IMG/VR virus record: IMGVR_UViG_3300009432_001268
Span: 12,192-76,191 of that record
Reading direction: 5' to 3' (one strand)
DNA length: 64,000 nucleotides
From: a virus
The position numbers and the translations under genes were made by a program. The notes beneath the pieces were generated by a model, which ran no database searches, was not told where the DNA came from, and was given only the letters and a program-made list of their open reading frames with translations. Below are positions 2,908 through 64,000 of the stretch, piece after piece. Within the stretch, counting starts at the first letter, position 1. Each line of letters starts with the position of its first letter.

Positions 2908-3324
2908 TTATATATTTACCGAAAACTTCTCAAAAATGTATTCTCGCGACAGTGATGGTAAGTCCTCTGCCTTTATCTCAAGAACCTCAAAACCGTTATT
3001 TTCAAGCCAGATCATCTTGTGGTGATCTCTTTTTATCGATTTTAGGTAGTTGGCTCGAGAATTACCATGGAAGAACTTGTTAAATGAATCGTGCTGAGCA
3101 CCTTGCGCTTCAACTGCAATCCGTTTCGTCATATTTACAAAGTCTACTTTCATCCTCGTGCCGTAAACGGGAAACTCCTCGTAACAAATGTGTTTTTCCC
3201 AAAAAGGCCTGAAGAACTGCTTAACTTCGAATTGAAAGTTTGAGCGACATTCTTTATCCCAATCGGCTCGATACTTATGGACACTTTTGTATTTAAGTTT
3301 TCCTCCGATGTCATATAATTTCAC
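2908..3324 (-). CDS. PD-(D/E)xK endonuclease, DUF559/Vsr-like
   Basis: EEFPV...VDF...IAVEAQGAQH...RDxxK...NGFEVLEI pattern. Confidence 0.75.
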   Translation of the reverse strand: MKLYDIGGKLKYKSVHKYRADWDKECRSNFQFEVKQFFRPFWEKHICYEEFPVYGTRMKVDFVNMTKRIAVEAQGAQHDSFNKFFHGNSRANYLKSIKRDHHKMIWLENNGFEVLEIKAEDLPSLSREYIFEKFSVNI

Positions 3325-4409
3325 TATTTAACCTGTAGGGCTTTTTTAAATTTATTGAAAAGGTAATCGCGAACTTCGTGCGCCTCTTCTAAATACTTCC
3401 GGAAATTGTCCAATCCTTGGTGCTTTGCTTCTATTTCTAAGCCTTCTTTTCTAATCTCTTCCACCAAGCTGTCCCCCACGATGATCCAAGCGCCTTTGGT
3501 GGTCGCCATGTCCCACTGAATAAGCATGTCTATAATCTCATACTCTATCCATATACTCCTGCCTCCTGTTCGGCCGTATTTGATAGGGTAACGAACCTCT
3601 GTACCTGTTTTCTCGTTTGCTGACTTCCGGAATATAACCCTGCACCAGTGTCCGTCGCCATTATTTTCTTTTGGCGGGATTAAGTCTTTCGACCAGCGCG
3701 GCTGGAATTCGAGAATCCAGTCGGAGTAGTGTAGCAAAGCGTTTCCTCCCGAAGCGTTGGTGAGCTTGGGGTCGGTCTTCTCGTATTGATTTATGCTGAC
3801 CTTGCTCCTGACTTGCGAGATCATGAAGCAAATGTGACCCTTCGTGGAAAGCCCTAAAGCCATCTTCTTCAAAAAGTTAGAGCTTAGAACGGAACCGCCA
3901 GCCACCTTGTCTGAGTCTTCGAAAGAGCGATCCATGTCTTTCTTTGGAACCATCGCATCCATCGAGTCGACAATAAAAAAATATTTACATTCGGTGGGGT
4001 TGTTCGTTATCAAATCCCGCATTAGTTGCAAAACGCTCTCGAAAATATTACTTTTATAAACGAACCATTTTTCGGCGGTAGTATCGACTCCGGAGCGATC
4101 AATCATGTCCGACGAGAGCCTACCTTCGGACTTGATGTAAACGACCATAGAGTTCTCTACTGTCGTTTGGAAATTACGAGCAAAAGATAAAGCGCATGAA
4201 GTTTTACCCCCTTCGGATACTCCGGAGGCCCGGATAATAGAAGGTCTAATTCCTCCACCCATTTCAATATCCAACAACAAGCTTCCGCTGGAAACCGTGT
4301 AATCCGGCGTATTTTCAAAGTTATAGTGGTCCTGCTTGTTTTCTTTAAGGTAGCTCTGTATTTGCTCTACAGGGCTTAGTCCTTCAGTTGTTTTCTTTTT
4401 TGCTGCCAT
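3324..4409 (-). CDS. recA: RecA/UvsX-like recombinase
   Basis: SSGSLLLDIEMGGG, Walker A GVSEGGKT, Walker B IVDSM, ISQVR, SGGNALLHYS. Confidence 0.9.
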   Translation of the reverse strand: MAAKKKTTEGLSPVEQIQSYLKENKQDHYNFENTPDYTVSSGSLLLDIEMGGGIRPSIIRASGVSEGGKTSCALSFARNFQTTVENSMVVYIKSEGRLSSDMIDRSGVDTTAEKWFVYKSNIFESVLQLMRDLITNNPTECKYFFIVDSMDAMVPKKDMDRSFEDSDKVAGGSVLSSNFLKKMALGLSTKGHICFMISQVRSKVSINQYEKTDPKLTNASGGNALLHYSDWILEFQPRWSKDLIPPKENNGDGHWCRVIFRKSANEKTGTEVRYPIKYGRTGGRSIWIEYEIIDMLIQWDMATTKGAWIIVGDSLVEEIRKEGLEIEAKHQGLDNFRKYLEEAHEVRDYLFNKFKKALQVK

Positions 4410-19771: not shown

Positions 19772-19839
19772 TTTTTATATTTAATTTCGTAGAACGCAAT
19801 GTATTGACAGTAACTTTTTCAAGGAAATATACAGAAGAC

Positions 19840-20207: not shown

Positions 20208-20213
20208 GCAAGT

Positions 20214-20242
20214 GTTTTAATACACACGGGGAACGATGTCAA
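20214..20242 (-). promoter_or_regulatory. Sigma70-like promoter, TTGACA-N5-CCCCG class, facing the structured RNA
   Basis: TTGACA TCGTTCCCCGTGTGTAT TAAAAC. Confidence 0.6.
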
Positions 20243-20312
20243 CCTTTTCTTCTGTTTGATTTTTGAAAAACTTTTAGCTCTATCCCTCCCGGGGGAAAAT
20301 CAGGAATTTAGC

Positions 20313-20341
20313 TTGACTTGTTTCCCCTGTTGTAATAGATT
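20313..20341 (+). promoter_or_regulatory. Sigma70-like promoter, TTGACT-N5-CCCC class
   Basis: TTGACT TGTTTCCCCTGTTGTAA TAGATT, upstream of the dCMP deaminase. Confidence 0.6.
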
Positions 20342-20350
20342 TAGTCCCTA

Positions 20351-35670: not shown

Positions 35671-35672
35671 AA

Positions 35673-38421: not shown

Positions 38422-38424
38422 ACC

Positions 38425-43878: not shown

Positions 43879-43886
43879 AATAAGAC

Positions 43887-50700: not shown

Positions 50701-51415
50701 CGTTCAGGTTAACCCCAGCATCCACCGCCGAAGAACCAACACGAGAAATTGATTTCGCTAAATCCTCTGAACTAACAGCAAAAGCCGCATCAACCTTGGC
50801 CATCCTGTTAATGACTTGAGCTGAAGTAACTCCTTCCTTATTAAAGGAGTTTACCGCTGCGGTAAGAGACTTGACTGCGTCCGCCGCGTTCATTCCCGTT
50901 AAACGCGTAAGGATAAGAGCATCCTTTGTTCGCATTAGAGTTTTTTCCATCCCCAAGCCTTGACGAGCTAATTCCGTAGCTGCCTCGGCCACGACATCGA
51001 ACCCTTGAGCCGTTTCTCTTGATACCTTGAACATCCCTTGTCCAAACTTTGCAAGGTTTTTGGTCGAAGCATTCATGACGACGTTAACGTCTGCCATCGC
51101 TTTTTCTACTTTTATTGCCGAAGACACCATCGCCTTCAAGGCGCGGTCAACCACCATTATTAATCCAGCGGATGCACCAAAAGCTATAACACGGGCATTT
51201 GAAGCTTCTAGGGATTTATTAAACTCATCAGCTTTTACTGTAGCTTTGGAAAGACCCGAGCCAAGAGCTCGAACCTTGTCTCCCCCTCCTCCCCCTCCGA
51301 AAGCCTTCCCCATGGTTTTACCCATGTCCCCCAACTTACGATTAATCTTTGCGATTTCTCGTTCGGCTTGCTTAGTAGCAAGCATAAGATCGACCGTTAT
51401 TTTATCCCTAGCCAT
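44753..51415 (-). CDS. Tail tape measure protein (TP901-type core)
   Basis: 2220 aa Ala/Gly-rich helical protein; ELARQG, VDAAFAVSSEDL, IGNAFKTIFTR, DDVPTM..GEFVI, QQRPGGLL. Confidence 0.93.
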   Translation of the reverse strand: MARDKITVDLMLATKQAEREIAKINRKLGDMGKTMGKAFGGGGGGDKVRALGSGLSKATVKADEFNKSLEASNARVIAFGASAGLIMVVDRALKAMVSSAIKVEKAMADVNVVMNASTKNLAKFGQGMFKVSRETAQGFDVVAEAATELARQGLGMEKTLMRTKDALILTRLTGMNAADAVKSLTAAVNSFNKEGVTSAQVINRMAKVDAAFAVSSEDLAKSISRVGSSAVDAGVNLNELMAITTAVQQKTARGGAVIGNAFKTIFTRIQRSDVQSKLKGFGVATEDMSGKMLSGIQVMENLSKKFGTLTKSQQASVGESVAGVFQINILKAAMSDLSSQTSNYKRALDTANSATNEAYKRNEQLNQSLDALVNRTLANLTQAGASLGGGALGPAIENILGVVNTTIESFGKDGAMEGFGKTIGKGLMDGIGKFISGPGLVFAVAIFGKLAISLGKFATSALKDVLGINNATKQRAALEEAVVLTMAQEPGILAQIKSGTFDVYTYEKKILSTIRLQAAERRSMALTAAPIGRALYARGARVGQSGGAFMKGGPGSASGFIPNFANAGSERAAAAAGGYQAGAIRTMNQPGAGTMMYNSAETVKRFPGMSQSAIMPPQGSSAGAGYQSAFGAAHGFDPYAASGFVPNFAFKKGASSPWATRNKKAGIGGKEATYTLPANDIGVLLGYDERGTKSFNASAQASSLVGLRKSKIGKQLAKDNATIVLRGIRAKSFQSPSSEATAEQLFAGDIDANLSKGMNSLSATMMKKMGIEGMPGKMGRLEAGIEGGIFEEAMRMSMKAAQAIPGAAFDFESGAKPSDAMAKIFGVPITRIDAKRRLKSAQGGEMPKKYFNDPGTSKVGERLLTQLYMGKMGQFTGKGKAMGFVPNFSPLTSAVSREMQAGVPASAIRVGNNGALKSAGNPGGVGVYNTIHEPGGLSQGISRSKSMGINPQTHGAAQGVVPNYAFRKKFPSAGAKQSRLATDTAKATASTAESTSRMADFMEKHGTAVGMGGFMAYSAVTGAAAQSDNAKVGAGVGVLANVGMFAGMGASMGAPAGGIGAVPGAAIGAAIGLAASFSDIMTLMDDGTDKFLEDLGKTVTVVNENINQLVSGLEELKNFDSMTPKKRIEALAKIDQQREAMLVELKGSEQPIFKHLVKEIETNIPTAGKMFSKGVPSSKALTELQAKMTKVQAQKEMAALFTGKTKDFDATKFTEARLSPSGEAKGRSGGFGGFTAADMMSVVKDDPKTRDAAQTFTRGLIDPTIMADVLTKTTTQVRGKYLQKMTGVERVRLIQQLPDNEKAMAMSGLLQDSGYAPLGKAFGEKFGPGGEGTTDAQNKGREFVMRNQFEGAGSLNPDLLESYEKAVIGPQEDPLEAKRKLRLSQEGSFRGSQRAAAEGRASAARLTTGMGDLTRRGASENLENRLAQTMIGATEFGKELIKSKALLEQDRILKEKGLAIDKVNLQQKEALVLLTAKAEKTFMDNLIKADDIGTPEREGIKARLKAVQDDPRLAQKTRTDLETSDNISAQDKLLLAYLKTSIDGEADARSKSGIKITEANAAQKANTENLTKSTKSLNDLYNAAQQFQYRKRAGILINAAETAANVPAGLRAMQQGRAPGYAGQRFGVTEQEIASAKQDARMKAFRAGTGTLNPAASFGESFAYGENDALLEFDSGVKDVAKNMKSSFADAFQSMASGANSVEGALANMAQSILNSISSISANMFSNMMFSKMFSQGGAVPGYAAGGVVTGGSGYKDDVPTMMQGGEFVIKKSSAQKIGYGKLNAINGYAEGGPAKGGGPSMGTMGMVAMGASALSGVIGSAMQPGAPKPLPSRDYGLGRGKHGFFGGADPDAGQGDMVTGGGGRAGVSLGKGFSYYRRDPETGRLISERSRPTEGRFEVSSGLSLMGRLGEDDPQTGRMFGKEQSMAKYQDYLATETASRKAQIDAVKKQKKQRLVGAYMNAAMMIGGAKLFGPKAPGPDVAGPGGQTYSSFEGSGGQAYGLKDMGFGNKGYGTGTGSSLMSGTWNSNYNNSVISTPGSADMLRGMGAGIGADSGYNRPVSLDHVIHKGPPGGALGGYQHYANGGSASGSPAMVMGGEYIMSPETVRTHGANFMHELNRGNVPSYASGGPVGGASAGNQGPHSETSIGGNTTNNVKISVNIDKTGKADASADTGSGGGGEREENEQANQSKEFGKILQGVVLDEIVKQQRPGGLLQANS

Positions 51416-51442
51416 ATTCCTAAGGATAATTACACTATTTTC

Positions 51443-52441
51443 TTAAGATACTCCGTGGATTTTCATCATGTCTTCCATATTAAGCCTACCGCCCTTCTCA
51501 GCGGCTTTTTTAGCGAGATTAATAGTCTCATTAGGGTCATCCAAACCAAGACGTTTAAGGTCTTGCTTTGTTGCTCCTACAAGAGACTGGGCACCGCCTT
51601 CTTGTCCAGCCACTTTGGACTTGTCAAGGGTTTCTTTGGCGCTTTTAGAAGATTCAAACCACTCTACCATCTTTTCCGGATCACCCGATATTTCATCGGG
51701 AGGTTTGTTGTCTGAATTTTCAATCAAACTCTTGTAATATCTCCCATAACCGAAGAGCTCTATCTGATAAAAGCTTAATTGAACCAAAGGCTTCCCAAAG
51801 AAAGAGTAGGCATTGTTTTCACAAAGATAAAAAAGATTAGTAAAAAAACCAGATAGAGAAAGTCTCTTTAAACTATCCGAGTTAAATTTTTTAGTGCTTT
51901 TGTTATAAGCCCCTATCAAATCTACCAGCTTCCCTTCCTCAAGTTCTTCAAACTCCTCATCATTGAAAAGTTTTTCCCCGCTTTCCTTAAGGAGAGCTTT
52001 TTGCATATAGTGTTCATTGATTCTCCTAGAGGCATATGCCTCAGCGCAAAAACCAATCATCTCTTCTTTCTTTAGGCTGAGGGTAGACAGTTCCCCTTGA
52101 CTTTTTTTTAAGTCGTTATTTATCTGGTCGATATGGGCCTGAAGAAAAACCTTGGATCTGGAGTTTTTTAAACCCGCTATAAGACTTTTAAGGTTTAGTA
52201 CCTCCTTGTTCTCTTTCTCAGTCCAGATGTTCTCCTCTAGTAAGTGGTCAATACGCTCTTTCCTTGTGGGAAGGCCTTGGGATACCGCTTTCTCATAAAA
52301 GAATCTATTCTTAATATCTAATTCGGCCGAGTCGAAATTATTGAAGTGCTTTATTCTTAAATTACCAAAAGGAGCAAGGTTTACGAGTGTATAACCCCGC
52401 AAAATCTCCGAAAAAACAATCTTTAAATTTCCATCTTCCAT
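51443..52441 (-). CDS. Putative tail assembly chaperone
   Basis: Helical charged protein directly upstream of the tape measure gene (positional call). Confidence 0.5.
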   Translation of the reverse strand: MEDGNLKIVFSEILRGYTLVNLAPFGNLRIKHFNNFDSAELDIKNRFFYEKAVSQGLPTRKERIDHLLEENIWTEKENKEVLNLKSLIAGLKNSRSKVFLQAHIDQINNDLKKSQGELSTLSLKKEEMIGFCAEAYASRRINEHYMQKALLKESGEKLFNDEEFEELEEGKLVDLIGAYNKSTKKFNSDSLKRLSLSGFFTNLFYLCENNAYSFFGKPLVQLSFYQIELFGYGRYYKSLIENSDNKPPDEISGDPEKMVEWFESSKSAKETLDKSKVAGQEGGAQSLVGATKQDLKRLGLDDPNETINLAKKAAEKGGRLNMEDMMKIHGVS

Positions 52442-52483
52442 TAGATCTTAGCCTCTACCCGATCCATGGAAACACCGAAGAGT

Positions 52484-53287
52484 TTACTCAACTCTTTTTT
52501 TTTTTGTTTCTTCTTTTTTCTTTTCCTCGGGTTCCGCTTCCTCCTCATCGAGCTTCAAAGCCAAGTCAATCATCTCCTGAAACTCCTTCTGAGAGTTGGG
52601 ACGACCCACAAACCAAAAACTGACATAATAAGCGAACTTCCGAGCCACAACGATGTCGAAAAAGGCCTCTCCTTCATCAATTTCGTCGTAACGTTCAATT
52701 TTCTTATCAAAATCTCCCTCTCCGAAGAATTCATCTTCCTTTTCTCCCTCTTCGGTGTGAGCCAGATGAAGCATCCACCAGAGGATCACCTTGTTCCTAG
52801 CGCGACTTTCGGCTGTTTCCTCGTAGAGACTATCCTCCACCAATTGCAAGTCCCTGAGCGCCCTCCTAGTGGGCTTAATTTCACTATCCAGCTCCTTAAG
52901 TCTCTTCTTTTGAGCGGGAGTCCTCTTTCTTTCGTCAATATCCAAAATTTTGGACTGTTCCTTGTGAAAACCCTGCAGTTTTGTGATTATCTCCTTATAT
53001 TGATCGTTTTCGTCATCACTTCTGGTCCCGCCATCGTTTTCGAACCTTTTTTCGAGCAAAGCGCGCGTTAAAAGTCCCGCTTTTATCCCTTCAGCAAGCC
53101 TTACCCCGTAATACAACTCAGCTTCATCAGTCATTGCTCGAGTAGGGCGACGCAGAAAGAACTTATATGGGACCTCTTTCTTTACGTCTTTTGCCGTAGT
53201 GACCTCTGTCCCGTCTTTTTTCTTCTCAACGGATTCTTCTTTGACCGTCTCTTCTTTGTTTACTGTAAACTCGTATATGCGCTTCAT
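52484..53287 (-). CDS. Putative tail assembly chaperone
   Basis: Acidic coiled-coil protein between the tail tube and tape measure genes (positional call). Confidence 0.5.
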   Translation of the reverse strand: MKRIYEFTVNKEETVKEESVEKKKDGTEVTTAKDVKKEVPYKFFLRRPTRAMTDEAELYYGVRLAEGIKAGLLTRALLEKRFENDGGTRSDDENDQYKEIITKLQGFHKEQSKILDIDERKRTPAQKKRLKELDSEIKPTRRALRDLQLVEDSLYEETAESRARNKVILWWMLHLAHTEEGEKEDEFFGEGDFDKKIERYDEIDEGEAFFDIVVARKFAYYVSFWFVGRPNSQKEFQEMIDLALKLDEEEAEPEEKKKEETKKKRVE

Positions 53288-53538
53288 TTTGGTTTATTAT
53301 CGTTATATTCTATGAATTTGTCAAAGTATTCTTCCAGTTCCCGAATAGTATCATTGCCTAAATCGAGAATTCTCTTGCGAATTCTTTGGTGGGTTTCTTC
53401 TGGGATTTTTACTCCGTTAACTTGGAGGTCTTCGAGTATGAAGAAAAATTGTTTATAAAGGTTCGTTATCTTTCGCCGAGTTTGAAACGCGAAAAAATTA
53501 TTGATAATATCCCTATCTGGGCCTTGTTCCTTTGACAT
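53284..53538 (-). CDS. Hypothetical protein
   Basis: 84 aa; RKRILDLGNDTIR; ATGA overlap. Confidence 0.65.
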   Translation of the reverse strand: MSKEQGPDRDIINNFFAFQTRRKITNLYKQFFFILEDLQVNGVKIPEETHQRIRKRILDLGNDTIRELEEYFDKFIEYNDNKPK

Positions 53539-53579
53539 ACCTTTTACCTTATATCTTATGTGTAATTACACTAAATTAC

Positions 53580-53607
53580 AAAAAAATGGCCCCGAATAGG
53601 GGCCATT
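53580..53607 (-). terminator. Intrinsic terminator after the major tail gene
   Basis: Minus strand AATGGCCCC-TATTC-GGGGCCA-TTTTTTT. Confidence 0.85.
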
Positions 53608-53628
53608 GTAAATAATTTTTATTATATC

Positions 53629-54918
53629 TTAGCCATCAATGTGTCCAGTATAACCACTCATAAAGAGCCCGAGTCCTGATTGCTCTGGGCCTCCAATCTG
53701 AGAACTAAAGCTAAGAGAAACTGATTGATTGTCTCCCATGCCCATACTAAACGATTGACTGTCAAGCTTTACTCCCTTGAGTATATAGTTTGCTGCGGCA
53801 TTGGCTCCTGCAGTCGCTCCACATTCTGGACTATTCAACTGAATTCGAGCATCGAACAAGCCATCACAATCAATAATCTCAGCTAAAGAACCGGTTGTTA
53901 AATCGGATACAACAGCGTCTACCCCCATACTGACAGTAATCGGAAAATCAATTAGCCTTGCGTAAGCAAATTTAGTTCCCAACTGCTCGATGGGACTCCG
54001 ACTCAAATCAAAGCTAATATTAAAACTTTGAATATGTGCATCTGCAATGTCTGCGCCAGCATAGTCGGGGTTCGTCATGTCTGTCGCCGTAGCTGCGGTG
54101 CCAATCCCATCATCGGTTTGTTGGGCCAAGAACAACCTTATATCTCCCGGACGTAAAACGCTAATTTCCCCAGCAGCTCTTTCGGCGGCATCTGTTCCGC
54201 CAGCATTACCAGTTGGTATTGGAAGAGCCACGTTTGCGGATGTTGCAGTGGCGTTTGCTTTTGTAGTTGCTTCGGGGAAAACGCGCTGTCCGTCAATTGG
54301 ATCAATAACAGGATTAATTCCCGATATATATTGAGTAGTGCCCGCGGCTCCTGTAGCGCCTACCGACGTGACCTCATGGAAGCCCATATTCATGCCCTCA
54401 GCCGCAACAGAAACAGTCGGGAAACCTCCCACAGAACCTTCGACAGAATAAGAAGTTAATCCGGCATTGCCTATACCGATAATACTTTCGTATTGGCCGG
54501 TGTCGGTAACCTGTAGTGTTGCATCAGCGTCTTTTCCTTCTTTAGCATTAAGGATGTAAAAGTTTCGCTGGTAAGCGTCGTTGGTAGAATCAATTAAATT
54601 AGTTATACATGAACGAAATGGGCCATCTACCCCACTAGGAGTAACATAAAAACCTAAACGCCTCTCGTTAGTCATGCTTGCTAACACATAAGACGTATCG
54701 AAAGAAACACTTGGGGATTCTGTTATGATTCTGTCTATAGCGCCTAACTGACCAAATTGATTGACGTCAGTACGACCAACATTAAAACCATAATTAGCAC
54801 TTTGTACGCGCTGTAAATCTTTTACCGCCCCGACGGCGCATTGGTTACCGCTAATCCCTGCGTCTACAGTGGTATAAACCGCCTCACTTTGATAAATTAC
54901 TCTGTTTCTCGTTGCCAT
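53629..54918 (-). CDS. Probable major tail tube protein
   Basis: RNRVIYQSEAVY, LQRVQSANY, VNQFGQL; lies between neck genes and chaperones/TMP; has its own terminator. Confidence 0.72.
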   Translation of the reverse strand: MATRNRVIYQSEAVYTTVDAGISGNQCAVGAVKDLQRVQSANYGFNVGRTDVNQFGQLGAIDRIITESPSVSFDTSYVLASMTNERRLGFYVTPSGVDGPFRSCITNLIDSTNDAYQRNFYILNAKEGKDADATLQVTDTGQYESIIGIGNAGLTSYSVEGSVGGFPTVSVAAEGMNMGFHEVTSVGATGAAGTTQYISGINPVIDPIDGQRVFPEATTKANATATSANVALPIPTGNAGGTDAAERAAGEISVLRPGDIRLFLAQQTDDGIGTAATATDMTNPDYAGADIADAHIQSFNISFDLSRSPIEQLGTKFAYARLIDFPITVSMGVDAVVSDLTTGSLAEIIDCDGLFDARIQLNSPECGATAGANAAANYILKGVKLDSQSFSMGMGDNQSVSLSFSSQIGGPEQSGLGLFMSGYTGHIDG

Positions 54919-54980
54919 TTTAAATCCTTAATTACTTATCTTATTTTACAGTTAATATGGTCGAAAGTGAAATTATTTTC

Positions 54981-55847
54981 CTATTGTCGAGGAAATCTAG
55001 CTTTATTAATCTCAAAATCAATTATAGTAGAGAAAACATTGGGGTTAAATTTTCTAACTTCGTTTTCTAACACTCTGTCAAATCGTGAAACATTAACCTC
55101 CTCGAGAAAGAAATGCTGATTTTCGGTCTTTCCAGCAGTCACCCCTGTATAATTATATTGCGTATCATTTCTGTAATAACCAAAAGAATTAAAAGGCATA
55201 TCCGCTTCTTCAAAAATTGGAACCATAGTTTTTTCCTGATCCCTGAAGAATGAGCCTATGGCATCTATTTCAAATTGGCTATCTGCGATTACTATTGCGC
55301 GCACCTTCATAATGGTGTTGTCCTGTCCACCAAAAGCAAAAGGTTCATTGAAGCTTCCGTCATTTTTTATGTATACTACCGGGTAGGTTTTGGTGCCGGG
55401 CTCAAGACCTGTTGGCACAACAGTTGAAATTTCGTTTCTGTTTGTGTACTGGGTTTGGAAAAGGATTTCATCTTCAGTACTGTTGGTTAAAAACACATTA
55501 AAGTCTTTGATGGAAAAACTTCCAGTAACATTAGAGCTTTGTGCTCCAGACCAATATGAGCGCCCATTGCTATAGTCAATAGCGTAAAGCCCAGTGCTTC
55601 CTCCGTCCCCCACATTAACAAGCGTATTTCCCGCATATAGCCCAGTCGGGATTGTAGCTCCAGTAACGGATGCGTCCGAAACTATTTGAGAATAGGTGCT
55701 CGCATAGGTGTCATACCCGTAATACTCATCAGAGACGCTATAAAATTGACCGGTAGTATTCTGATAAGCCTCCCCCTCGGTTAGCAACTTGTGGTCAAAC
55801 CATAGAAGCATACTTGACATTATTTGGTTATCGAATTGTGGTTTCAT
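54981..55847 (-). CDS. Putative tail terminator/completion protein
   Basis: Position upstream of the tail tube gene; YPVVYI..PFAFGG. Confidence 0.5.
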   Translation of the reverse strand: MKPQFDNQIMSSMLLWFDHKLLTEGEAYQNTTGQFYSVSDEYYGYDTYASTYSQIVSDASVTGATIPTGLYAGNTLVNVGDGGSTGLYAIDYSNGRSYWSGAQSSNVTGSFSIKDFNVFLTNSTEDEILFQTQYTNRNEISTVVPTGLEPGTKTYPVVYIKNDGSFNEPFAFGGQDNTIMKVRAIVIADSQFEIDAIGSFFRDQEKTMVPIFEEADMPFNSFGYYRNDTQYNYTGVTAGKTENQHFFLEEVNVSRFDRVLENEVRKFNPNVFSTIIDFEINKARFPRQ

Positions 55848-56443
55848 ACAAGCTGCTTTCTTAGTTTGTCCAAGATTTCCGTAACGTATGGTGTTGGGCG
55901 GAAGTTAATAAATCCAATATTTCTAGTGGTTTGTAGGGCTACTCCTGACCTGCTATTTTCGGAATCAACGAAAATGGTGTTGGCGGCGTTGGTAATTCCT
56001 TTTTCCACGCCCCTAACCCAACTTCTGCTGCTCCAAATAAGAGTCTTGGTTTCTTTTTCGATATCAACCGATGAAGGTATATCCACAATAAACTCCCATA
56101 TAAATGAAGTTGGGGTCAATTTTTTCAGTTTTCCCTTCGTATTCCTCACTTTAATACTATTTCTAAAAGTATCCCTGATGACCATTACTGGCTGATCCCC
56201 TTCCCTAAAGCCTAAAAACCCAAAAAAATTACCCCGACCACCCAGTAAGCTACTCCCTCCTCCGGAGGAGCCTTTTTCCAGCTCTTGCGTTACCACGTGA
56301 GTATCCAGTTCTTTTAATGCTTCCTTTTGCAGCCTTGCTGCTTTCTTTTTCGCTGCGCCATAGGCTAAATTTTGAAAAACTTTCGAATTAGAAAATGCTT
56401 TTTTCGTTACTTGGGAGATAGTTATTTTGCCTCTGACAGCCAT
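55844..56443 (-). CDS. Putative neck/tail completion protein
   Basis: Basic 199 aa protein with C-terminal RPTPY; positional call. Confidence 0.45.
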   Translation of the reverse strand: MAVRGKITISQVTKKAFSNSKVFQNLAYGAAKKKAARLQKEALKELDTHVVTQELEKGSSGGGSSLLGGRGNFFGFLGFREGDQPVMVIRDTFRNSIKVRNTKGKLKKLTPTSFIWEFIVDIPSSVDIEKETKTLIWSSRSWVRGVEKGITNAANTIFVDSENSRSGVALQTTRNIGFINFRPTPYVTEILDKLRKQLV

Positions 56444-56880
56444 TAGGTGGTTGCCTCCAGATAATATACATAATAGGTTTTTCCCAAGAAGTAACGTGCA
56501 CCTTCAGAACTAACAACATTAAATTGGTTCCCTCCAATCTCTACGGAGAGAGTCCTGCCTTTATTGAGGTAAGCGCTACAGTCTAGCTCCACCTTGATTC
56601 TCACGTCACCTTTTTCTATGTTAGCTTTAAGTTCGTCTTGGTAATCTAGGGGCTGGTTTTCCTTGTAATTAACAATAGCAGTAAAAGCCTTGCTTACCGG
56701 CGTGTAAACTACCGTCTCTTTTGGCGCGCTGTAGCCTGCGTAAATATTTTGCGAAGCGGCCAAAGTTATAGTCTTCTTAGCTTCTTTGTGGACGGTTATC
56801 GCCGCTTTGAACGTATCGAAATGATCTCCTAGAGCCGTTTCAAATATAGCTTTCGCCGTTGCTGGTACCAAAGATGCCAT
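56443..56880 (-). CDS. Putative head closure/stopper protein
   Basis: 145 aa beta-rich protein; positional call. Confidence 0.45.
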   Translation of the reverse strand: MASLVPATAKAIFETALGDHFDTFKAAITVHKEAKKTITLAASQNIYAGYSAPKETVVYTPVSKAFTAIVNYKENQPLDYQDELKANIEKGDVRIKVELDCSAYLNKGRTLSVEIGGNQFNVVSSEGARYFLGKTYYVYYLEATT

Positions 56881-57497
56881 TAGATATAATTTGGTTGTAT
56901 TCTATTGTAAGAGCCGCCGTAACTAATTGAGTATCGACCCACTTCGGTGTCGTCACCGGCAACCTGAACCGGGGAAGACTTTCTTAGTTTGTAAGCATTG
57001 ATTAAGTCGGTTAGCTCCGAATACTCTTCCTTCTTTAACGAAATGTAAGTTTTGCTTAATTCGTTTTTGTTAATTTTCCTTACTCGGGAGCCATCAGATG
57101 CGACCTCTACGACAGGATCGCTGGAAGCAGCGCCTACGGTCGCTCTAATTTGCTGGTCGTAATAGTGAACTATATACATTTTTTTCAACACAGAAGATTC
57201 TTCTGCCTGAATAGAAACTATAACTGGCTCAGAAGTTGCCCCACTATCCCCTGCCACCGAAAGTCCTAAAGCCCCCGTACCTTCATTGAAGGCTTGGGGT
57301 TCGTACTGGGGGGAAGCGAAACTCCCCGAAAATTCATAAGCGTCAGGTCCGTAATCCACTATTTTAAAAGTGGTGTTTATTCTATTATTCAATTCGCCCA
57401 CGTTACTCCTAATCCAGAAAGCAATTGCGGGGATAGAAATCGTTGAAGGTTCTCCAAGTTCCCTGAAAATTTCATCTGCAATATCAACAATTTTCAT
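56880..57497 (-). CDS. Putative head-tail adaptor
   Basis: 205 aa, first gene of the neck operon; positional call. Confidence 0.45.
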   Translation of the reverse strand: MKIVDIADEIFRELGEPSTISIPAIAFWIRSNVGELNNRINTTFKIVDYGPDAYEFSGSFASPQYEPQAFNEGTGALGLSVAGDSGATSEPVIVSIQAEESSVLKKMYIVHYYDQQIRATVGAASSDPVVEVASDGSRVRKINKNELSKTYISLKKEEYSELTDLINAYKLRKSSPVQVAGDDTEVGRYSISYGGSYNRIQPNYI

Positions 57498-57508
57498 ATT
57501 TATAGAAA

Positions 57509-60500
57509 TTACACTATTTTCCCATCTCCATCGCTATATTTTTCCACGATAAGTCTATCTACATTAGCTCTTTCGCCGTAAATCACATAGTAACAATCAA
57601 TAGTTTCTCCAGAAGCGGCTCCAATTTTGATTTCAGTTAATGAAGTACTCACTACATACAAATGCTGGAATGACCCGTTTGGAGTTAATTGAACCGTGAC
57701 CGTGCCATCTCTCACAAGGCCTACCCAATAATCGGGTAGGGTAATTGTACCGGATTGAGCCCTTCCCCGGTAATAAACGCCAACCTCGGGTCCCTCCAAA
57801 GAGGAGTGCACGAGTTTCATTCCCGCCTTTGTTGGGTGATCTATTTCAAAATTCTTGGTGCCTGTGGCGGTGAAAGTTCCGTCAACATAGACGTTGTGAC
57901 CTGCCGATTGATGATTTTGGTTGAAATAAGTTGTATAAGCGCTGCTACTAGTTGACCCAAACCACCTGAATTGTCGATCATTGGTTCCGACAGGCTGGTA
58001 ATCCATATAGTAGGCCGTGCCGCTGTTACCATAAAACCGAATCTTACCGTCGTTTCCGTTTGTGGTGCCAATTTGTAGGATCTGATCGTTAGAAATTGTA
58101 ATTCCGCCTCCGTACACATGAAGCATCGCAGACGGTACGCTAGTCCCGATGCCAACGCTACCGACGCCCGCGAAAGATCCATTAGTAATGCGCATGGTTT
58201 CTATGCAGGAACCCAAGCCTCCAGCCGGTTCGAAGGTCATGTATTTAGCTAAAAAGCGCGCTGGGTAACCGGCATTACCAACGGCCGCACTTCCGAACAT
58301 TAGGGCGTTTGCAGAGTTCAGGACCATCAACTGCCTGAACGTCCCCGACGTATCTTTGGCCCCGTAAGCACCGCCGTTGGGTACCACGAGCCCGGCTCCA
58401 AATGTAGCTGTTCCGTTAGCCTCAAGGGTCATCGCTTGGGTATAGTTGGTTCCGTTATTTGAGGACGTTCCAAAAATTAACTCACCATCTCCAGAACCTG
58501 ATCTTTTGCAGACAATAAACGCTCTTCCGCTTTGCGAATCTCCCACTGAAAAATCAATACCAACAGCAGGGCTTCCGTAAGTCGCTGTGGCTGCATTGTT
58601 AGCCAACTTTAATGCTCTCCATGTGCTTGAAGTATCAATCGCATAGTTTGCTGTTTTTGTATCTAGGACAGTTAATTTTGTGCTGGGGGCAGTATCCCCG
58701 ATGCCGACATTGCCGTCTTGCAAGAAAGTCACCCTGTCTACAGTGCTGCCAAAATTATCAGCCAGCGTCCGTATATTTAAAGCCCCTGCGTTGTGATAGA
58801 ATGCCCAGTTTTGGTTTGTTGAATTTATTTCCTTGAAAACTAATGTCGGGCCATTAGATTCAATCATCACCCGATTGTCTGGCCCTTGATAGAAATGAAC
58901 ATCAGCAGCGGGACTAGTTGTCCCGAAGCCGACTTTACCGTCCCCCTTAATAGTCATCCGGGTTAGCTTGCCTGCCCCGGTCGCCTGAGTTTGAAGCTGT
59001 AGTTGCGCAGAATCCGTTGCGCCGTCTTGGGTGACTCTAATTTGAGCCATGTATTTATCTAAATTTGCATTACCAAAACTAATCGCCCCAAGAACTCCTG
59101 ATGTATCTCCAGTCGTGCGCAATAGAAGCATATCCGCGCCAGCGGTAGCTTGTAGATTAAGAAGAGTATCTGGCGCAGCAGTCCCGATGCCGACACTGCC
59201 GTTAGCCAGCATAGCCAAACCCGTAGAACCAGAAAACGTCGTTCCGCCAACAGCGGTGGACGGGCCAATGTGTAAAGCATTGTCTATCTCTTGTACCGCT
59301 ACTTGAAAATTGTTTCTGGATGGAGTAGCGAGACTGTCAAAAAACATTAGACGCCTATAAGCACCCCCACCAGAAGATATTCGCACCGTCGACCCATGAA
59401 CATCTAGTTTCGCTCCCGGCGCAGTAGTCCCGATGCCGACATCGCCGCTGGTGTCAATAAGCAGTCTCAGGGCAGAGTCTTGACGGTCGTAAATCTCAAA
59501 GGCTGAACCACTAACAGAAATATTTTGACCAATCTCCACATGTTGAGCCGTGGATTTAAACTCAAGCTGCGCATTCCAACCCACCGATGATGATTCAATA
59601 CGGACTGCAGCATATGTACTAGACGGAGCATAAAGATGAAGCAACCTTGCTGGCGCAGTAGTCCCGATGCCGACACTGCCTACCTGAAAATTAAATAAAC
59701 TCCCGCGCAAATAGAAAGGAACATCGGCTGAATTTGCATCATTGCGCGTGTTGATTTGCACCGCAGTTGAATCCGCTCGTACCCGTAAGTTTTGGTTTGT
59801 AGCAACCTTTACTTGAAAAGGCTGGTCTGGCGTAGCAGTCCCGATGCCGAGATAACCGTCAACCCACGCATTATCGTTGGGAGCCGCTAACTGCTTCACG
59901 GGTAGCGCAAAAGTGGTAGTGTCGGTGGTATAAATAGCCGATACCGTCGTGCCAGACATGAACGTGTCAGTGACAGCCGCCGTAGCACCCAGACACCTCA
60001 TCTTGAGTACCAATCCGTTCCCGGTTGAAGTTCTATGAACAATTTGAATCCTGTAACGTGAATTTGTACTGTCCCATGTTACATCTGATATGGCGAAGTT
60101 GTTGTTAGTCACCCCCCCTACATTTGAATACCAAGACTCATTTGTATAAATGCCATTGCTAGCATTCAAACCAAGAGCGAAACTCTTCGTGAGAACACCA
60201 GCCATGTTTTGATTTGAATAACTACCCGTTATCTCAATCTCTAGATAACCCCAAAACGCACCCGTCCAGTACAAATCTAACTTCTGATTGGCAACTGCGT
60301 TTGTGAAGTAAGGAGTATTGAATAACCTTTCTCCTGCGAAATTACTGTTTGCGCCACCGATCCTTAACCCTCCATTAAGATAAGCTTGGCCCGTGGCGCT
60401 CAATGTTCCTGTGACAGCTAGCGCACCGCCTATAGTGGCCGTTCCAGACATATTTAAGTTCCGCCACTTGACACCTGTAGTTCCAAGATCAAACAAGCCG

Positions 60501-63500
60501 TTTATCGCACCGACTAAATTCCCTCCGATTGTGGTGGTTCCACCTAAAAGCGAATCTCCGTTTACATGGAGTAGTTTAGAAGGACTAGTAGTCCCGATGC
60601 CGACATTGCCGTCTTGAATTATTGTTAGTTTCGCATCCCCGACAGCAGCAGAACTGTTATCAGCATTAGACTGCACAGCTAAATGCAACTTACCAACTCC
60701 GTAGGTTCCTGTCCTTTGGAATATTACCGCTCCTTTTGATCTGTCGTAGCTAATAGCGGATGAGTTATCTGTCCTGAACCATATTCCAGCTTGAGTAGTG
60801 TTGTCAGTACCACCGTAAGCATTAACAAGCATCTGGGTATCGTTTCCAGATTTATAAATTTCTAAAGCCTGAGTTGGGGATGCGTTATTACCTATACCAA
60901 AATTACCATTAGAGACCATCATCATTGCCCTAGTGCCAGCATAAGCGAAGCTAAAGGCATTCCCGACGGAACCTCCATCATCATACCTCAATTGCAATGT
61001 CCTTGCTGGAAGATTAGAAGGAGCAATGGTTATACATTCTGAAATGTACGGAGTAGAAGCCGCAGACGGCCCTATAATATGAAGTTTTGCTGCTGGCGCA
61101 GTAGTCCCGATGCCGACCTTGCCGTCAGTTAGAATAGTAACTCTATCGTTTGTGCCTAAAGCGCTGTGCTGACTAATTTTTAAGGAATCACCATCCGAAT
61201 CGTCTGCTCCCAAAGCCCAATGAGTTGTGTTGTTAACTAGGAAATTTATATATGGATCAGCACCACCTTCCCCCTCAATTTGAACAGTAGCATTACTAGC
61301 GCCAGTTCCAAAAATAGACAATTTATGAGGTGGCGTAGCAGTCCCGATGCCGACCCTCGGACTGTTGCTAACCAGCTTGACAATAAAATCTGTATCACCG
61401 CCGCTATAGGTGGTTGTGTTTGATCTGACAGCGAAAACTTCTGCATCGTTTTCCGACACCGAAGAAACCACAAGGCAATCGGCTCCTGCCACATTGTTGC
61501 TATTATGTATCCAAGCAGTAGGTGTTCCCGCCGCAGTTGAATTAACAACCGTCAACGGATTCCCCGGCGCAACAGTCCCAATGCCGACATTGCCGTTGTT
61601 CAGTACTACAAGTTTATATACCCCAGCCGAAACAGCACCTAACAAATAACCGCTAGTATCTATATCTGTTTGGATCAATAACCCAGACGGAGCTGTCGTG
61701 GATGTGTTGTGGAATCTGGTTAACCAATCTGAAGCTGTAGCACTAACGACATCCAGCTTGTGTGCAGGCGCAGTAGTCCCGATGCCGACGTAACCAGTAT
61801 ACCCCTGTATTAACATTACCTCAGTCGGGGTAGTATTATTAAGTTTAGTTTTAAACGCTATGCTTCCATTTAAATTATTTGCGCCTACAGTTCTACCGTA
61901 GTTTTCGATTGTAAGCCGTTCAGCCCCAGATGTGTACTGTACTAATGCCCCATAGGTTCCAACTACCTGAGATGACAGTTCCAATGTGGCAGTGTACGGT
62001 GAGGCTCCTGTCTCGTAAATGAGTAGCCTAGAATCATTCGTATCATTAACCTGAAGCTTTGTACTAGGCGCAGCAGTCCCGATGCCGACTTTGCCGTCAC
62101 CCTGAAAAGTTACCTTAGTATCATTTGCAAAGCTTACATCAGCGTCATCACCGGTGTTATCGAGGGCGAATAAAAGTTTTCCAATTCCATACGAACCTGT
62201 TCGCTTCCATCCAATACCGCACTTAGCTCGTCGTGTCCCCCCATGAACGCCAAAATAAATCGGACTAATATCATTGTTAGCTCCATTAGAATTTTGTAAA
62301 CGTAACCCGCCTGAGAGGCTTTCGCCCACAGTATCGGAATCTACAGTAAGTCTAGCAGTTGGCGCATTAGTCCCGATGCCAACTTTGCCGTCTCCCAAAA
62401 ACCTCACTCGCTCAGCTAATCCACTGGCATCAGTTTTCTCCAAATTAAACACAAGGTCAGCAGATCCATTATTGCTTGAATTTCTTATGGCTGATACCTG
62501 TGCCCCGTATCTATTTAGGGAATGGTTATTGGATGTCTTAAAAAATATTCCAGCTCCGCCACCTATAGTAGCGTCTGCGCTCAGGCAGGTTATAATCGAA
62601 GTAGGGCCACTACTAGTTGCTCCATAAACATTAAGAATACTATTTAAGTTTGCAGCCGTCCCGATGCCGACTTTGCCGTCAGCTTGAATCCTCACCTTCT
62701 CTGCGCCATTAGTTCCCGTGCAGAAGGTGGTGAACCCACCTGTTATTCTTAAATGTGCGGCCGCATTAGTAGCTGCATAAAGTTGTTTAATATCCGCAGT
62801 AGTATAGCCACCGTTGTCGTGTAAGATGTCCAGTCCCGCGCCGCCACCAACTCTAACATTACCGCTTCCACTCCCAACCTGTAGATCACGGTATGGCGCA
62901 TCAGTCCCAATGCCGACTTTGCCGTCCCATTTAACGGCAAAAGCAACTAATGCACTAGTATTTGGATAAATATAAAAATCTCCCGCTCCTTCTGAGTATC
63001 TTATTCTCCCCTGAACCGCTCCAGAGTTATTCCAATAGTCTATATCTAAATTTTGTGCATTATTGGTATTTTCTATAATAATGCCCGTACTCCCTGATAC
63101 TGTGCTTTTAATATGTAAATTCTTGCTTGGACTTGTCGCCCCTATGCCGACATTGCCGTCAGACTTAAACCTTACTATCTCTGTGCCAGATTTAGCGGAC
63201 GCACTTCCTATCTCAAAAACAAAACCTCCATAGGAAGAGTGAGAGGTGTGACTGCTGTAAAACCTAGCTTTGCCGTCGCCATTTTCAATATATAAACCAG
63301 CAGCCCAGTTCGCCTGAACCTTTAACTCTGCGGAAGTAGTAGAGCCCCCTTGTATATGCAGAAGCCGACTCCCAACTCCTGTTGGCGCAGTAGTACCGAT
63401 GCCGACGTTGCCACCAGTTGGATTTAATATAAGGTTTTTATACGCTGTCGCAGTGTCGGCATAAATTGAGGCGTAGTCATTCGTGCCTGTATTATTGAGT

Positions 63501-64000
63501 TGTAAACGAACAACCGTGGATGCCGTGTTGTCTACTCTTACAGCCCCACTAAACGTAGCAGTAGTACCCGTCAGCGCACCACTGAATGTGGCATTTCCTG
63601 CCGCAGTGAGTTCCAAAACTACCCCGCCATTAGCCGAACCCAATTTCAGTTCGCCGTTCCCATAAGCGTGAGTAGAGCGAATGTGATTTTGAGTGATGAC
63701 TGTACCATTTACGTCCAACGAGTCTGCCGCTGGATTCCACGTTAATGCAGTGTCACCTGACAGAGTGCCTGCTGTAGGACGAAACAATATAGGTACAGCG
63801 GCATTTACAGTTGTTGATGGAAGAGTGGGCAAATTAACATTACCGCTGAATGTACCAGTACCGGTTACTGATAGGCCTGTGGAGGATACATTTAAATAAG
63901 TCGTTGCGCCGCACTTGAACGTAAAAGGAGTGCCACTAGAGCCTGTCGCAATAACCCCGGTGTTACTTATAATGTCCCCATAGGTTATAAGGTTCCCGTA
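57509..64000 (-). CDS. Long modular tail fibre (5' end beyond the window)
   Basis: About 19 G(N/K)VGIGTxxP repeats; C-terminal KNFEIDHP..HSSLEGPE..YRG domain. The frame stays open from 63832 to 64000, so the track start is internal. Confidence 0.88.
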   Translation of the reverse strand, partial: YGNLITYGDIISNTGVIATGSSGTPFTFKCGATTYLNVSSTGLSVTGTGTFSGNVNLPTLPSTTVNAAVPILFRPTAGTLSGDTALTWNPAADSLDVNGTVITQNHIRSTHAYGNGELKLGSANGGVVLELTAAGNATFSGALTGTTATFSGAVRVDNTASTVVRLQLNNTGTNDYASIYADTATAYKNLILNPTGGNVGIGTTAPTGVGSRLLHIQGGSTTSAELKVQANWAAGLYIENGDGKARFYSSHTSHSSYGGFVFEIGSASAKSGTEIVRFKSDGNVGIGATSPSKNLHIKSTVSGSTGIIIENTNNAQNLDIDYWNNSGAVQGRIRYSEGAGDFYIYPNTSALVAFAVKWDGKVGIGTDAPYRDLQVGSGSGNVRVGGGAGLDILHDNGGYTTADIKQLYAATNAAAHLRITGGFTTFCTGTNGAEKVRIQADGKVGIGTAANLNSILNVYGATSSGPTSIITCLSADATIGGGAGIFFKTSNNHSLNRYGAQVSAIRNSSNNGSADLVFNLEKTDASGLAERVRFLGDGKVGIGTNAPTARLTVDSDTVGESLSGGLRLQNSNGANNDISPIYFGVHGGTRRAKCGIGWKRTGSYGIGKLLFALDNTGDDADVSFANDTKVTFQGDGKVGIGTAAPSTKLQVNDTNDSRLLIYETGASPYTATLELSSQVVGTYGALVQYTSGAERLTIENYGRTVGANNLNGSIAFKTKLNNTTPTEVMLIQGYTGYVGIGTTAPAHKLDVVSATASDWLTRFHNTSTTAPSGLLIQTDIDTSGYLLGAVSAGVYKLVVLNNGNVGIGTVAPGNPLTVVNSTAAGTPTAWIHNSNNVAGADCLVVSSVSENDAEVFAVRSNTTTYSGGDTDFIVKLVSNSPRVGIGTATPPHKLSIFGTGASNATVQIEGEGGADPYINFLVNNTTHWALGADDSDGDSLKISQHSALGTNDRVTILTDGKVGIGTTAPAAKLHIIGPSAASTPYISECITIAPSNLPARTLQLRYDDGGSVGNAFSFAYAGTRAMMMVSNGNFGIGNNASPTQALEIYKSGNDTQMLVNAYGGTDNTTQAGIWFRTDNSSAISYDRSKGAVIFQRTGTYGVGKLHLAVQSNADNSSAAVGDAKLTIIQDGNVGIGTTSPSKLLHVNGDSLLGGTTTIGGNLVGAINGLFDLGTTGVKWRNLNMSGTATIGGALAVTGTLSATGQAYLNGGLRIGGANSNFAGERLFNTPYFTNAVANQKLDLYWTGAFWGYLEIEITGSYSNQNMAGVLTKSFALGLNASNGIYTNESWYSNVGGVTNNNFAISDVTWDSTNSRYRIQIVHRTSTGNGLVLKMRCLGATAAVTDTFMSGTTVSAIYTTDTTTFALPVKQLAAPNDNAWVDGYLGIGTATPDQPFQVKVATNQNLRVRADSTAVQINTRNDANSADVPFYLRGSLFNFQVGSVGIGTTAPARLLHLYAPSSTYAAVRIESSSVGWNAQLEFKSTAQHVEIGQNISVSGSAFEIYDRQDSALRLLIDTSGDVGIGTTAPGAKLDVHGSTVRISSGGGAYRRLMFFDSLATPSRNNFQVAVQEIDNALHIGPSTAVGGTTFSGSTGLAMLANGSVGIGTAAPDTLLNLQATAGADMLLLRTTGDTSGVLGAISFGNANLDKYMAQIRVTQDGATDSAQLQLQTQATGAGKLTRMTIKGDGKVGFGTTSPAADVHFYQGPDNRVMIESNGPTLVFKEINSTNQNWAFYHNAGALNIRTLADNFGSTVDRVTFLQDGNVGIGDTAPSTKLTVLDTKTANYAIDTSSTWRALKLANNAATATYGSPAVGIDFSVGDSQSGRAFIVCKRSGSGDGELIFGTSSNNGTNYTQAMTLEANGTATFGAGLVVPNGGAYGAKDTSGTFRQLMVLNSANALMFGSAAVGNAGYPARFLAKYMTFEPAGGLGSCIETMRITNGSFAGVGSVGIGTSVPSAMLHVYGGGITISNDQILQIGTTNGNDGKIRFYGNSGTAYYMDYQPVGTNDRQFRWFGSTSSSAYTTYFNQNHQSAGHNVYVDGTFTATGTKNFEIDHPTKAGMKLVHSSLEGPEVGVYYRGRAQSGTITLPDYWVGLVRDGTVTVQLTPNGSFQHLYVVSTSLTEIKIGAASGETIDCYYVIYGERANVDRLIVEKYSDGDGKIV
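58143..63406 (-). repeat. About 18 interspersed copies of a conserved DNA box, core GTCGGCATCGGGAC
   Basis: Plus-strand GTCCCGATGCCGAC or close variants at 58143, 58695, 58920, 59181, 59427, 59661, 59838, 60591, 61104, 61341, 61575, 61776, 62076, 62370, 62658, 62904, 63138, 63393. Confidence 0.93.

Follow-up and report, generated by a model that had tools for sequence, protein, structure and literature searches.

Codon-locked capping-loop boxes in a giant phage tail-fibre gene are candidate in-frame joints for the exchange of fibre segments

We examined a 64,000-nucleotide (nt) stretch of DNA from an uncultured marine phage, positions 12,192 to 76,191 of IMG/VR record IMGVR_UViG_3300009432_001268 (hereafter the window), which carries a giant tail-fibre gene whose modules each open with a box of about 33 nt. 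The boxes are locked at synonymous positions to particular codons, the locking is restricted to the box, and the box region is homologous to a fibre of solved structure. Furthermore, blocks of homology shared with other contigs end at boxes, and related fibres are not collinear. The evidence points to a structural loop that opens each segment and doubles as the DNA joint for segment exchange, and we consider it probable, at roughly three chances in four, that the boxes are in-frame, short-homology crossover points for rebuilding the fibre. Fibres are the main determinant of host range in marine phages, and their diversification is poorly known in uncultured lineages.

A 15-nt core, GTCGGCATCGGGACT, searched with up to 3 mismatches, matches the window 19 times, compared with 0.68 matches expected by chance and a maximum of 3 in 100 shuffles. 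Eighteen of these matches lie on the coding (minus) strand (8 exact, 7 with one mismatch, 2 with two and 1 with three), and one, with 3 mismatches, lies on the opposite strand. A first-pass annotation, made by a model from the sequence alone, had described about 18 copies of a box of roughly 30 bp, in agreement with the 18 coding-strand matches and with 19 boxes at the peptide level ([VLF]G[IF]G[TADN], consensus DGxVGIGTxAP), all in one frame (Table 1). All of the core matches fall within 58142-63406, and a search of the rest of the 64-kilobase (kb) window found the core nowhere else. Every spacing between core matches is a multiple of 3, and the box spelling of the window includes the word GTCGGCATCGG. 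Sixteen of the 19 modules are 59-100 amino acids (aa) long and the remaining three are 184, 218 and 251 aa. The deviant copy that the annotation had placed near 60890 (GNFGIGNN) is present and reads AAT TTT GGT ATA GGT AAT.

Table 1. Positions of the fibre gene, its boxes and other features in the window. L027, L028, L029 and L032 are contigs compared with the window; ORF, open reading frame.
Feature	Position	Strand	Remark
Giant fibre gene	57509..64000	minus	from the ORF list; 5' end open, outside the window
Box 1 GGNVGIGTTAP	63383..63415	minus	
Box 2 DGNVGIGATSP	63128..63160	minus	
Box 3 DGKVGIGTDAP	62894..62926	minus	
Box 4 DGKVGIGTAAN	62648..62680	minus	upstream junction of L032-shared module
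Box 5 DGKVGIGTNAP	62360..62392	minus	downstream junction of L032-shared module
Box 6 DGKVGIGTAAP	62066..62098	minus	
Box 7 TGYVGIGTTAP	61766..61798	minus	
Box 8 NGNVGIGTVAP	61565..61597	minus	
Box 9 SPRVGIGTATP	61331..61363	minus	
Box 10 DGKVGIGTTAP	61094..61126	minus	
Box 11 NGNFGIGNNAS	60878..60910	minus	sole copy in different codons
Box 12 DGNVGIGTTSP	60581..60613	minus	
Box 13 DGYLGIGTATP	59828..59860	minus	
Box 14 VGSVGIGTTAP	59651..59683	minus	
Box 15 SGDVGIGTTAP	59417..59449	minus	left junction of 93% L027 block
Box 16 NGSVGIGTAAP	59171..59203	minus	between two L027 blocks; 714 nt (two extra modules) here in L027
Box 17 DGKVGFGTTSP	58910..58942	minus	inside 98% L027 block
Box 18 DGNVGIGDTAP	58685..58717	minus	right junction of 98% L027 block
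Box 19 VGSVGIGTSVP	58133..58165	minus	L029 junction: ~80% identity upstream, 100% downstream
Modules 15-17	58718..59449	minus	common to the otherwise unmatched viral contig L027
Module 19 and C-terminal tip domain	57512..58165	minus	99% aa identity to L029, 75% to syntenic L028
RecA/UvsX-family recombinase gene	3324..4409	minus	PHROG 97 UvsX-like, E = 4.5e-32; Pfam PF00154, 64.9 bits (cut-off 27)

Since the ORF leaves the window at its 5' end, the fibre protein is at least 2163 aa long. It matches the PHROG tail-fibre families 18345 (E = 2e-66) and 9942 (E = 2e-50) in 7 stretches each, and its last ~115 aa match PHROGs 28536 and 17490, both of unknown function. No family was found at E <= 0.1 in a Pfam-A search with a 2107-aa query, and megablast of the fibre gene against cultured phages returned no match. 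Its relatives by tblastn are the fibres of cyanophages, pelagiphages and Flavobacterium phages.

The boxes are spelt in the rarest synonymous codons of the fibre gene. ATC makes up 10 of 103 isoleucine codons outside the boxes as opposed to 14 of 18 at the box isoleucine, and GTC 19 of 128 valine codons outside as opposed to 15 of 17 at the box valine. Pairs of boxes with the same residue share its codon with a frequency of 0.691, whereas draws from the gene's own codon usage gave 0.304 (standard deviation 0.018, maximum 0.365 in 2000 draws). Therefore, the synonymous fixation noted in the first-pass annotation is not a product of codon bias, which we rejected as a candidate cause. A preference for one glycine codon is likewise excluded, since the three box glycines are fixed in a position-specific manner (GGC in 13 of 18, GGC in 18 of 19 and GGG in 17 of 19; chi-square P = 7e-11).

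The locking also does not extend beyond the box. Sixteen typical modules were aligned and pairs with the same residue compared for codon; the codon was shared by 622 of 892 pairs in the box columns, by 76 of 211 in the next 12 columns and by 294 of 834 elsewhere. A leucine nine residues downstream of the box is conserved in 14 of the 16 aligned modules, and its codon is shared in 19 of 91 pairs. Comparison of the fibre gene with itself found no intragenic repeat longer than 49 nt. The low codon sharing outside the box and the absence of longer repeats indicate that the modules are old and that only the box is kept alike; silent sites between modules are, judging by these comparisons, saturated. 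Recent tandem duplication followed by fast protein divergence was rejected for the same reasons, as codon sharing outside the boxes (0.35-0.36, and 0.21 for the leucine) lies near the null of 0.30. We also considered modules of foreign base composition. The GC content at third codon positions (GC3) of the module bodies is 0.25-0.45, near the 0.36-0.53 of other genes in the window, and so shows no compositional sign of recent import.

The box peptide is, by homology, the known capping loop of trimeric beta-helix fibres. A phmmer search of PDB chains matched residues 1525-1727 of the 2107-aa query to residues 3-228 of 8OND_A, the Bdellovibrio protein Bd2133 (E = 5.1e-13), with the Bd2133 stretches GNLGLGTAAPTSALHV and GNVGIGATAPTAKLEV falling opposite boxes 16 and 18 in the alignment. 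The 8OND structure is described as an intertwined trimeric beta-helix, the segments of which are bounded by capping loops at its edges (PMC10769870). The consensus of these loops, as given in the available text, is V-G-G/N-pi-x-x-P-x-x-x-L and occurs also in S74-type phage fibres (Caulton et al. 2024, PMC10769870). The fibre contains 19 copies of a corresponding segment-boundary motif, [VLF]G[IF]G..P...L. The proline of the published consensus, in the form available, stands one residue earlier than in the boxes, and the likeness is to the loops of Bd2133 itself. No S74 chaperone domain was detected in the 2107 aa searched (Pfam-A, E <= 0.1), so the fibre would belong with the non-S74 forms. 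We propose on these grounds that the protein forms a very long trimer of at least 19 anciently diverged beta-helix segments. A single-sequence AlphaFold2 model of the C-terminal 218 aa is of low confidence (predicted local distance difference test score 35, predicted template modelling score 0.27).

The modules had been described at first as largely unrelated cassettes, a description that we revise. Identity to the first module is 16-38% for fifteen typical modules, and this, together with the repeated PHROG matches, identifies the modules as diverged repeats of one fold. In this respect the fibre resembles the shafts of Bdellovibrio MAT ('mosaic adhesive trimer') and S74 proteins, which are likewise long beta-helices with segments bounded by capping loops. 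However, Bdellovibrio is a predatory bacterium, and here we are dealing with a phage in which the S74 domain was not detected. In the available text of the MAT paper (PMC10769870), moreover, 'mosaic' refers to the tip domains, and that text is silent on conservation of the loop at the DNA level and on recombination at the loop.

We then compared the spelling of the box across lineages. Six cultured cyanophage and pelagiphage fibres encode the same peptide in other codons, which are uniform within each gene: GTT GGT ATC GGT ACG in S-CRES1, GTA GGC ATA GGG ACT in S-B28 and GTA GGT ATT GGT ACA in Jormungand, for example. A codon-unbiased sample (L034-L152) was gathered with a codon-degenerate D-G-[N/K]-V-G-I-G-T pattern and comprises at least 119 viral stretches; the counts that follow from it hold among the matches listed. 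It contains 124 genes with 466 VGIGT boxes, in which no codon is dominant and the spelling of the window falls outside the 15 commonest. Forty-three genes have at least 4 boxes, and in 37 of them codon identity within the gene is above background (for example, 0.91 vs. 0.34 expected and 0.92 vs. 0.41). Codon locking with a lineage-specific spelling is thus, as far as these comparisons reach, a property of the fibre family. A universal DNA or RNA signal was rejected, given that no codon dominates the 466 boxes and that the six cultured phages spell the peptide otherwise. Lineage-specific locking speaks for homogenisation by recombination rather than for a fixed protein-recognition site or an RNA signal.

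Spellings in this sample include a GC-rich class (GTC GGC ATC GGG/GGC ACN) and AT-rich classes (GTT GGT ATA GGA ACA; GTA GGT ATT GGT ACT). Related GC-rich spellings occur in about 9 of the 43 genes, and are also found in genes with a GC3 of only 0.1-0.3, such as those of L045, L082 and L110. They could have been imported from GC-richer genomes or could reflect biased conversion. The GC3 of the boxes is above background in 29 of the 43 genes (mean +0.11, Wilcoxon P = 0.007). Values are bimodally distributed, and in several genes the boxes are GC-poorer than the background. The evidence for GC-biased conversion as a general signature is therefore weak and mixed. The exact 23-nt word of the window was found in 20 viral stretches, and across the whole genome collection it occurs in 5 stretches of bacterial metagenome-assembled genomes (MAGs). 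The MAG contigs (L154-L158, assigned to Verrucomicrobia, Methylomarinum, Saccharibacteria, Acidiferrales and Paceibacterota) contain it once each, in most cases within fibre-like ORFs with multiple boxes of mixed spelling. In Synechococcus phage S-CRES1 (L021, 3061-7030), 13 boxes show two sub-spellings that are largely clustered by position, with GTT GG[T/C] ATC GGT ACG AGT in copies 2-8 and the last, and GTC GGT ATC GGG AC[G/A] in copies 9-12. Such clustering suggests local homogenisation between neighbouring repeats.

It might be argued that the box codons are under translational selection, either for accuracy or to make the ribosome pause at the capping loop while the trimer folds. In line with this explanation, no residues of the protein are more conserved than those of the box, and their codons are rare elsewhere in the gene. 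However, codon optimality cannot explain why the three glycine positions are fixed differently, and the downstream leucine, equally conserved, has random codons. Other lineages spell the box with common AT-rich codons, so that the codons are neither rare nor optimal consistently, and elevated box GC3 is confined to the 29 of 43 genes noted above. We regard translational selection as highly improbable.

Comparison with related fibres gave the most direct view of where modules begin and end. The 77.7-kb viral contig L027 has two blocks in common with the window, one of module 15 (270 nt, 93% identity) and one of modules 16-17 (515 nt, 98%). The two blocks are contiguous in the window, and in L027 they are separated by 714 nt with two other modules. 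When the edges of homology were aligned base by base, all four fell in boxes (one each in 15 and 18, two in 16), and past these edges the sequences are unrelated. Apart from the shared blocks, the two fibres match at boxes only, and the whole L027 record has no DNA match to positions 38000-57508 (19.5 kb) of the window. At positions 1854-21004, L027 has a row of three giant fibre ORFs, which encode 2828, 1841 and at least 1481 aa and contain 17, 14 and 10 boxes, respectively. Internal duplications of up to 972 nt at 65-76% identity are present in the first ORF, and so duplication of modules within a genome does occur in relatives.

Other contigs share different parts of the gene. L029 is 80-95% identical to the window in the genes downstream of the fibre, and within the fibre gene identity is 100% between a point in box 19 and the gene end and about 80% over the ~190 nt upstream, beyond which the sequences are unalignable. 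L032 shares module 4 only, from box 4 to box 5, at 82% nt identity, and L033 shares module 2 only, at 78%. The tail genes at 49611-57520 have syntenic counterparts in L028 at 69-74% nt identity, and the L028 fibre has a homologous C-terminal domain but otherwise another set and number of modules, which match at boxes only. Conserved residues in seven neighbouring genes of L028 and the window share their codon in 42% of cases (Gly 29%, Val 38%, Ile 42%, Thr 36%); arbitrary pairs of boxes share codons in 55%, and the consensus of the 25 boxes of L028 equals the word of the window. Six of the 19 window modules have a best match of at least 57% aa identity, to five different contigs, and their neighbouring modules have no such match.

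We counted the ends of homology blocks between contigs that use the spelling of the window, excluding positions at contig ends. Of 40 block ends, 22 lie within 25 nt of a box centre, whereas 5.24 would be expected (maximum 14 in 20,000 randomisations). Duplicate loci were removed (L004, L015 and L030 with L027; L006 and L031 with L028), and the count omits 3 of 24 high-scoring segment pairs (HSPs), namely two long syntenic L010-L018 blocks and the 3.5-kb block between L029 and the window. The codon-unbiased sample served as an independent one, and of its 22 ends, among the matches listed, 12 lie at boxes, where 2.9 would be expected (maximum 9 in 5000); here 12 of 23 HSPs were omitted as lying outside the box-bearing span or exceeding 1500 nt. 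The first-pass annotation had named two findings that would speak against its reading, box codons due to background codon bias and collinear fibres with breakpoints not enriched at the boxes. Neither was obtained: background usage does not account for the box codons, and the related fibres proved non-collinear, with block ends enriched at boxes in both counts.

The same pattern is found between cultured phages. A 79% block shared by the pelagiphages Jormungand and HTVC142P ends 5 nt before the valine codon of the first box, and a 96% block, 1824 nt long, begins 30 nt ahead of the valine codon of the fourth. This bears on the concern that assemblers jumped between co-occurring phages at the box and so produced false mosaics. 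The window and most of the comparison contigs are indeed uncultured assemblies, and a jump at an in-frame box would leave the frame open. However, box-bounded junctions between isolates that were cultured and sequenced separately indicate that the pattern is no assembly artefact, and codon locking within the gene is seen in cultured phage genomes as well. In addition, exact repeats between boxes do not exceed 27 nt, which is below the final k-mers of common assemblers, and the shared blocks are 93-98% rather than 100% identical. It is most improbable that the mosaics are artefactual.

The body of module 2 in L033 is 78% identical in nt to that of the window, yet both flanking boxes are in other codons, the downstream box being about 67% identical to that of the window as counted from the listed codons. 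It follows that the box goes with the resident gene and not with the module, a pattern that crossovers or conversion tracts inside the box would produce. The pattern can also be read passively. Peptide constraint would keep the repeats similar enough to pair, short-tract gene conversion among the repeats of one gene would homogenise them, and exchange between phages would be an occasional, non-adaptive side effect. In favour of such passive concerted evolution are the L033 case, the specificity of spelling to gene or lineage with uniformity in 37 of 43 genes, and the lack of a dedicated enzyme among 50 ORFs scanned. On the other hand, six modules matching five contigs while their neighbours do not would mean that exchange is frequent, and the syntenic L028 carries a different set of modules. 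This alternative overlaps with the crossover explanation and differs from it only in whether exchange matters; we consider it improbable.

In the explanation that we favour, the boxes of two fibre genes within one cell would pair as short, in-frame patches of homology, and general homologous recombination between them would swap, insert or delete whole beta-helix segments. Each crossover would fall between segments, at a point that is neutral for the structure and allows any pair of segments to stack. Such exchanges, with their conversion tracts, would also keep box spelling uniform within a gene and across the pool of phages that exchange segments, and homogenisation of this kind would leave box codons that are locked, rare in the genome and specific to the lineage. 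We infer that crossover is guided by homology of the box rather than merely tolerated there, and that the outcome would change host recognition.

The exchange would be performed by a RecA-family protein of the phage or by a host enzyme. Possible use of a phage RecA had been suggested at the outset, and a RecA/UvsX-family gene is present in the window (Table 1), making its product a candidate enzyme for short-homology exchange; that part of the suggestion stood, and the link between this gene and the fibre is one that we infer. The initial description of a system without a reverse transcriptase or invertase agrees with the scan of 50 window ORFs (the fibre itself excluded), which found no integrase, invertase, Rci-like protein or reverse transcriptase in the 64 kb. 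A 138-aa ORF directly downstream of the RecA-family gene (2908-3324, minus strand) matches Pfam DUF559 (24.9 bits, cut-off 20.6), which we take to be an endonuclease-like fold, and its product may be a repair or homing-type nuclease.

The latter ORF is one of the observations that would fit a box serving as the target of a site-specific recombinase or nuclease, in the manner of a shufflon or a homing-like system. The others are a short, fixed core word repeated 18 times and the fact that the window covers only part of the genome. Nevertheless, all 18 coding-strand copies are direct and not inverted repeats, no integrase, invertase or Rci-like protein was among the ORFs scanned, and the spelling varies with lineage, the phenomenon being found also in small podoviral pelagiphage isolates. 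The first-pass annotation had further described the core of the box as an imperfect palindrome that in some copies extends to a bulged hairpin, and this part of its reading was not supported. When six boxes were folded as DNA, a bulged hairpin formed in box 16 only (z = -2.2), and the other five (z from -1.7 to +1.1) had no structure in common, so that a hairpin or palindrome was rejected as a general feature. A recombinase or nuclease target is, in our judgment, very unlikely.

Several observations weigh against the boxes as crossover points. The evidence is wholly comparative, comes mostly from metagenome assemblies and concerns 64 kb of the genome. Boxes have only short exact runs in common (longest 27 nt, median 11 nt, at least 20 nt in 12 of 171 pairs), and such lengths are near or below those of efficient RecA-type exchange. 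Ends farther than 25 nt from a box make up 18 of the 40 and, among the matches listed, 10 of the 22 in the two counts, and no recognisable box lies at the older L029 boundary near 58360. L033 shares a module without sharing the spelling of the box. Breaks inside a segment may also be non-viable, in which case selection for folding alone could yield junctions centred on boxes. Finally, adding and deleting modules was part of what had been proposed for the boxes. Breakpoints at boxes and non-collinear fibres support their use as in-frame crossover points, but this gene contains no duplicated module (no repeat longer than 49 nt) and so gives no sign of gain or loss within the phage.

The nearest precedent is the T-even phages, in which recombination occurs at the His boxes of gp37 and at the glycine-rich motifs of gp38 that flank hypervariable segments (Tetart et al. 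1996, 1998, cited in Trojet et al. 2011, PMC3157838). The comparison with His boxes made in the first-pass annotation is apt, as conserved motifs part variable segments in both cases and exchanges take place at or near the motifs (PMC3157838). To judge by the available text, both systems alternate conserved, glycine-rich structural motifs with variable segments, and both would use general recombination without a dedicated enzyme to make chimeric host-recognition proteins. However, the protein family is another one (PHROG 18345 and 9942, 'tail fiber protein', with no Pfam match), and Pfam, PHROG and tblastn searches revealed no homology of the fibre to gp37 or gp38. The units here are whole shaft beta-helix segments of about 80 aa, at least 19 in a row, whereas those of T-even phages, as described in the part of that literature available, are loops of a small adhesin. 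Synonymous locking to rare codons with lineage-specific spellings is not described for T-even phages in the same sources, and the exchanges reported there were obtained in crosses whereas ours are deduced from comparison. The fibre gene thus appears to work like T-even shuffling without being a member of the T-even family.

Other systems share single features with the boxes. GRINS are repeats in assembly-line polyketide synthase genes that promote gene conversion, according to the available text (PMC8256042). They too are DNA-level repeats in a modular coding gene that are linked to conversion and module diversification, but the genes, organisms and type of repeat are unrelated to ours. Shufflons and invertible tail fibres (Rci; Cin, Gin and Min) produce alternative pilus or fibre ends by rearrangement at short repeated sites. 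Unlike the direct repeats found here, they need inverted sites and a site-specific recombinase, and no such enzyme is encoded by the 50 ORFs scanned. Nor is there any sign of a diversity-generating retroelement, with no reverse transcriptase in the scanned ORFs and no repeat longer than 49 nt in the fibre gene. In the literature searched, mainly openly available main texts, neither codon-locked capping-loop boxes nor box-bounded exchange is described for this fibre family. Since the principle is known from T-even phages, the advance lies in a new family, a sharper DNA-level signature and breadth, and not in a new kind of mechanism.

If the boxes are joints, their silent positions record which genes form one exchanging pool, and recombination joints and module pools could be predicted straight from metagenomes. 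More tentatively, and with the odds against it, the box may be a community-wide DNA 'connector standard', in which each spelling defines a compatibility group of phages, and perhaps bacteria, that exchange segments. If so, modules with a consensus box would spread and those with drifted boxes would be stranded, by molecular drive or by second-order selection for evolvability. Divergence in spelling would isolate pools of modules, and the GC-rich spelling found in this AT-rich genome would identify the phage as belonging to a widespread pool. Whether evolvability arises by design or as a by-product would become experimentally addressable, and the boxes suggest natural in-frame junctions for building chimeric fibres in laboratory phage-host systems.

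The distal end and the setting of the fibre gene gave further observations. The tip domain (57512-57860, minus strand, the last ~115 aa) shares 48-52% identity with the C-terminal ends of fibre-like proteins from Flavobacterium phages and several Synechococcus phages, and it appears to be widely shared among phages. The position of the fibre gene was compared with the region 35113-51415. The fibre gene lies upstream of four small unannotated genes and a 2220-aa tape-measure gene on the minus strand. The gpJ-like and minor tail genes (35113-43878, plus strand) are not adjacent to it. The giant fibre may be a side tail fibre, a neck fibre or a head fibre. Finally, positions 4968-17767 (minus strand) hold a long run of sugar-modification genes, with two nucleotide-sugar epimerase-like genes, a methyltransferase, a HAD hydrolase fusion, an aminotransferase-like gene, a GNAT acetyltransferase and a glycosyltransferase. 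This run is unusually large for a phage, and its products may modify virion proteins or the host surface.

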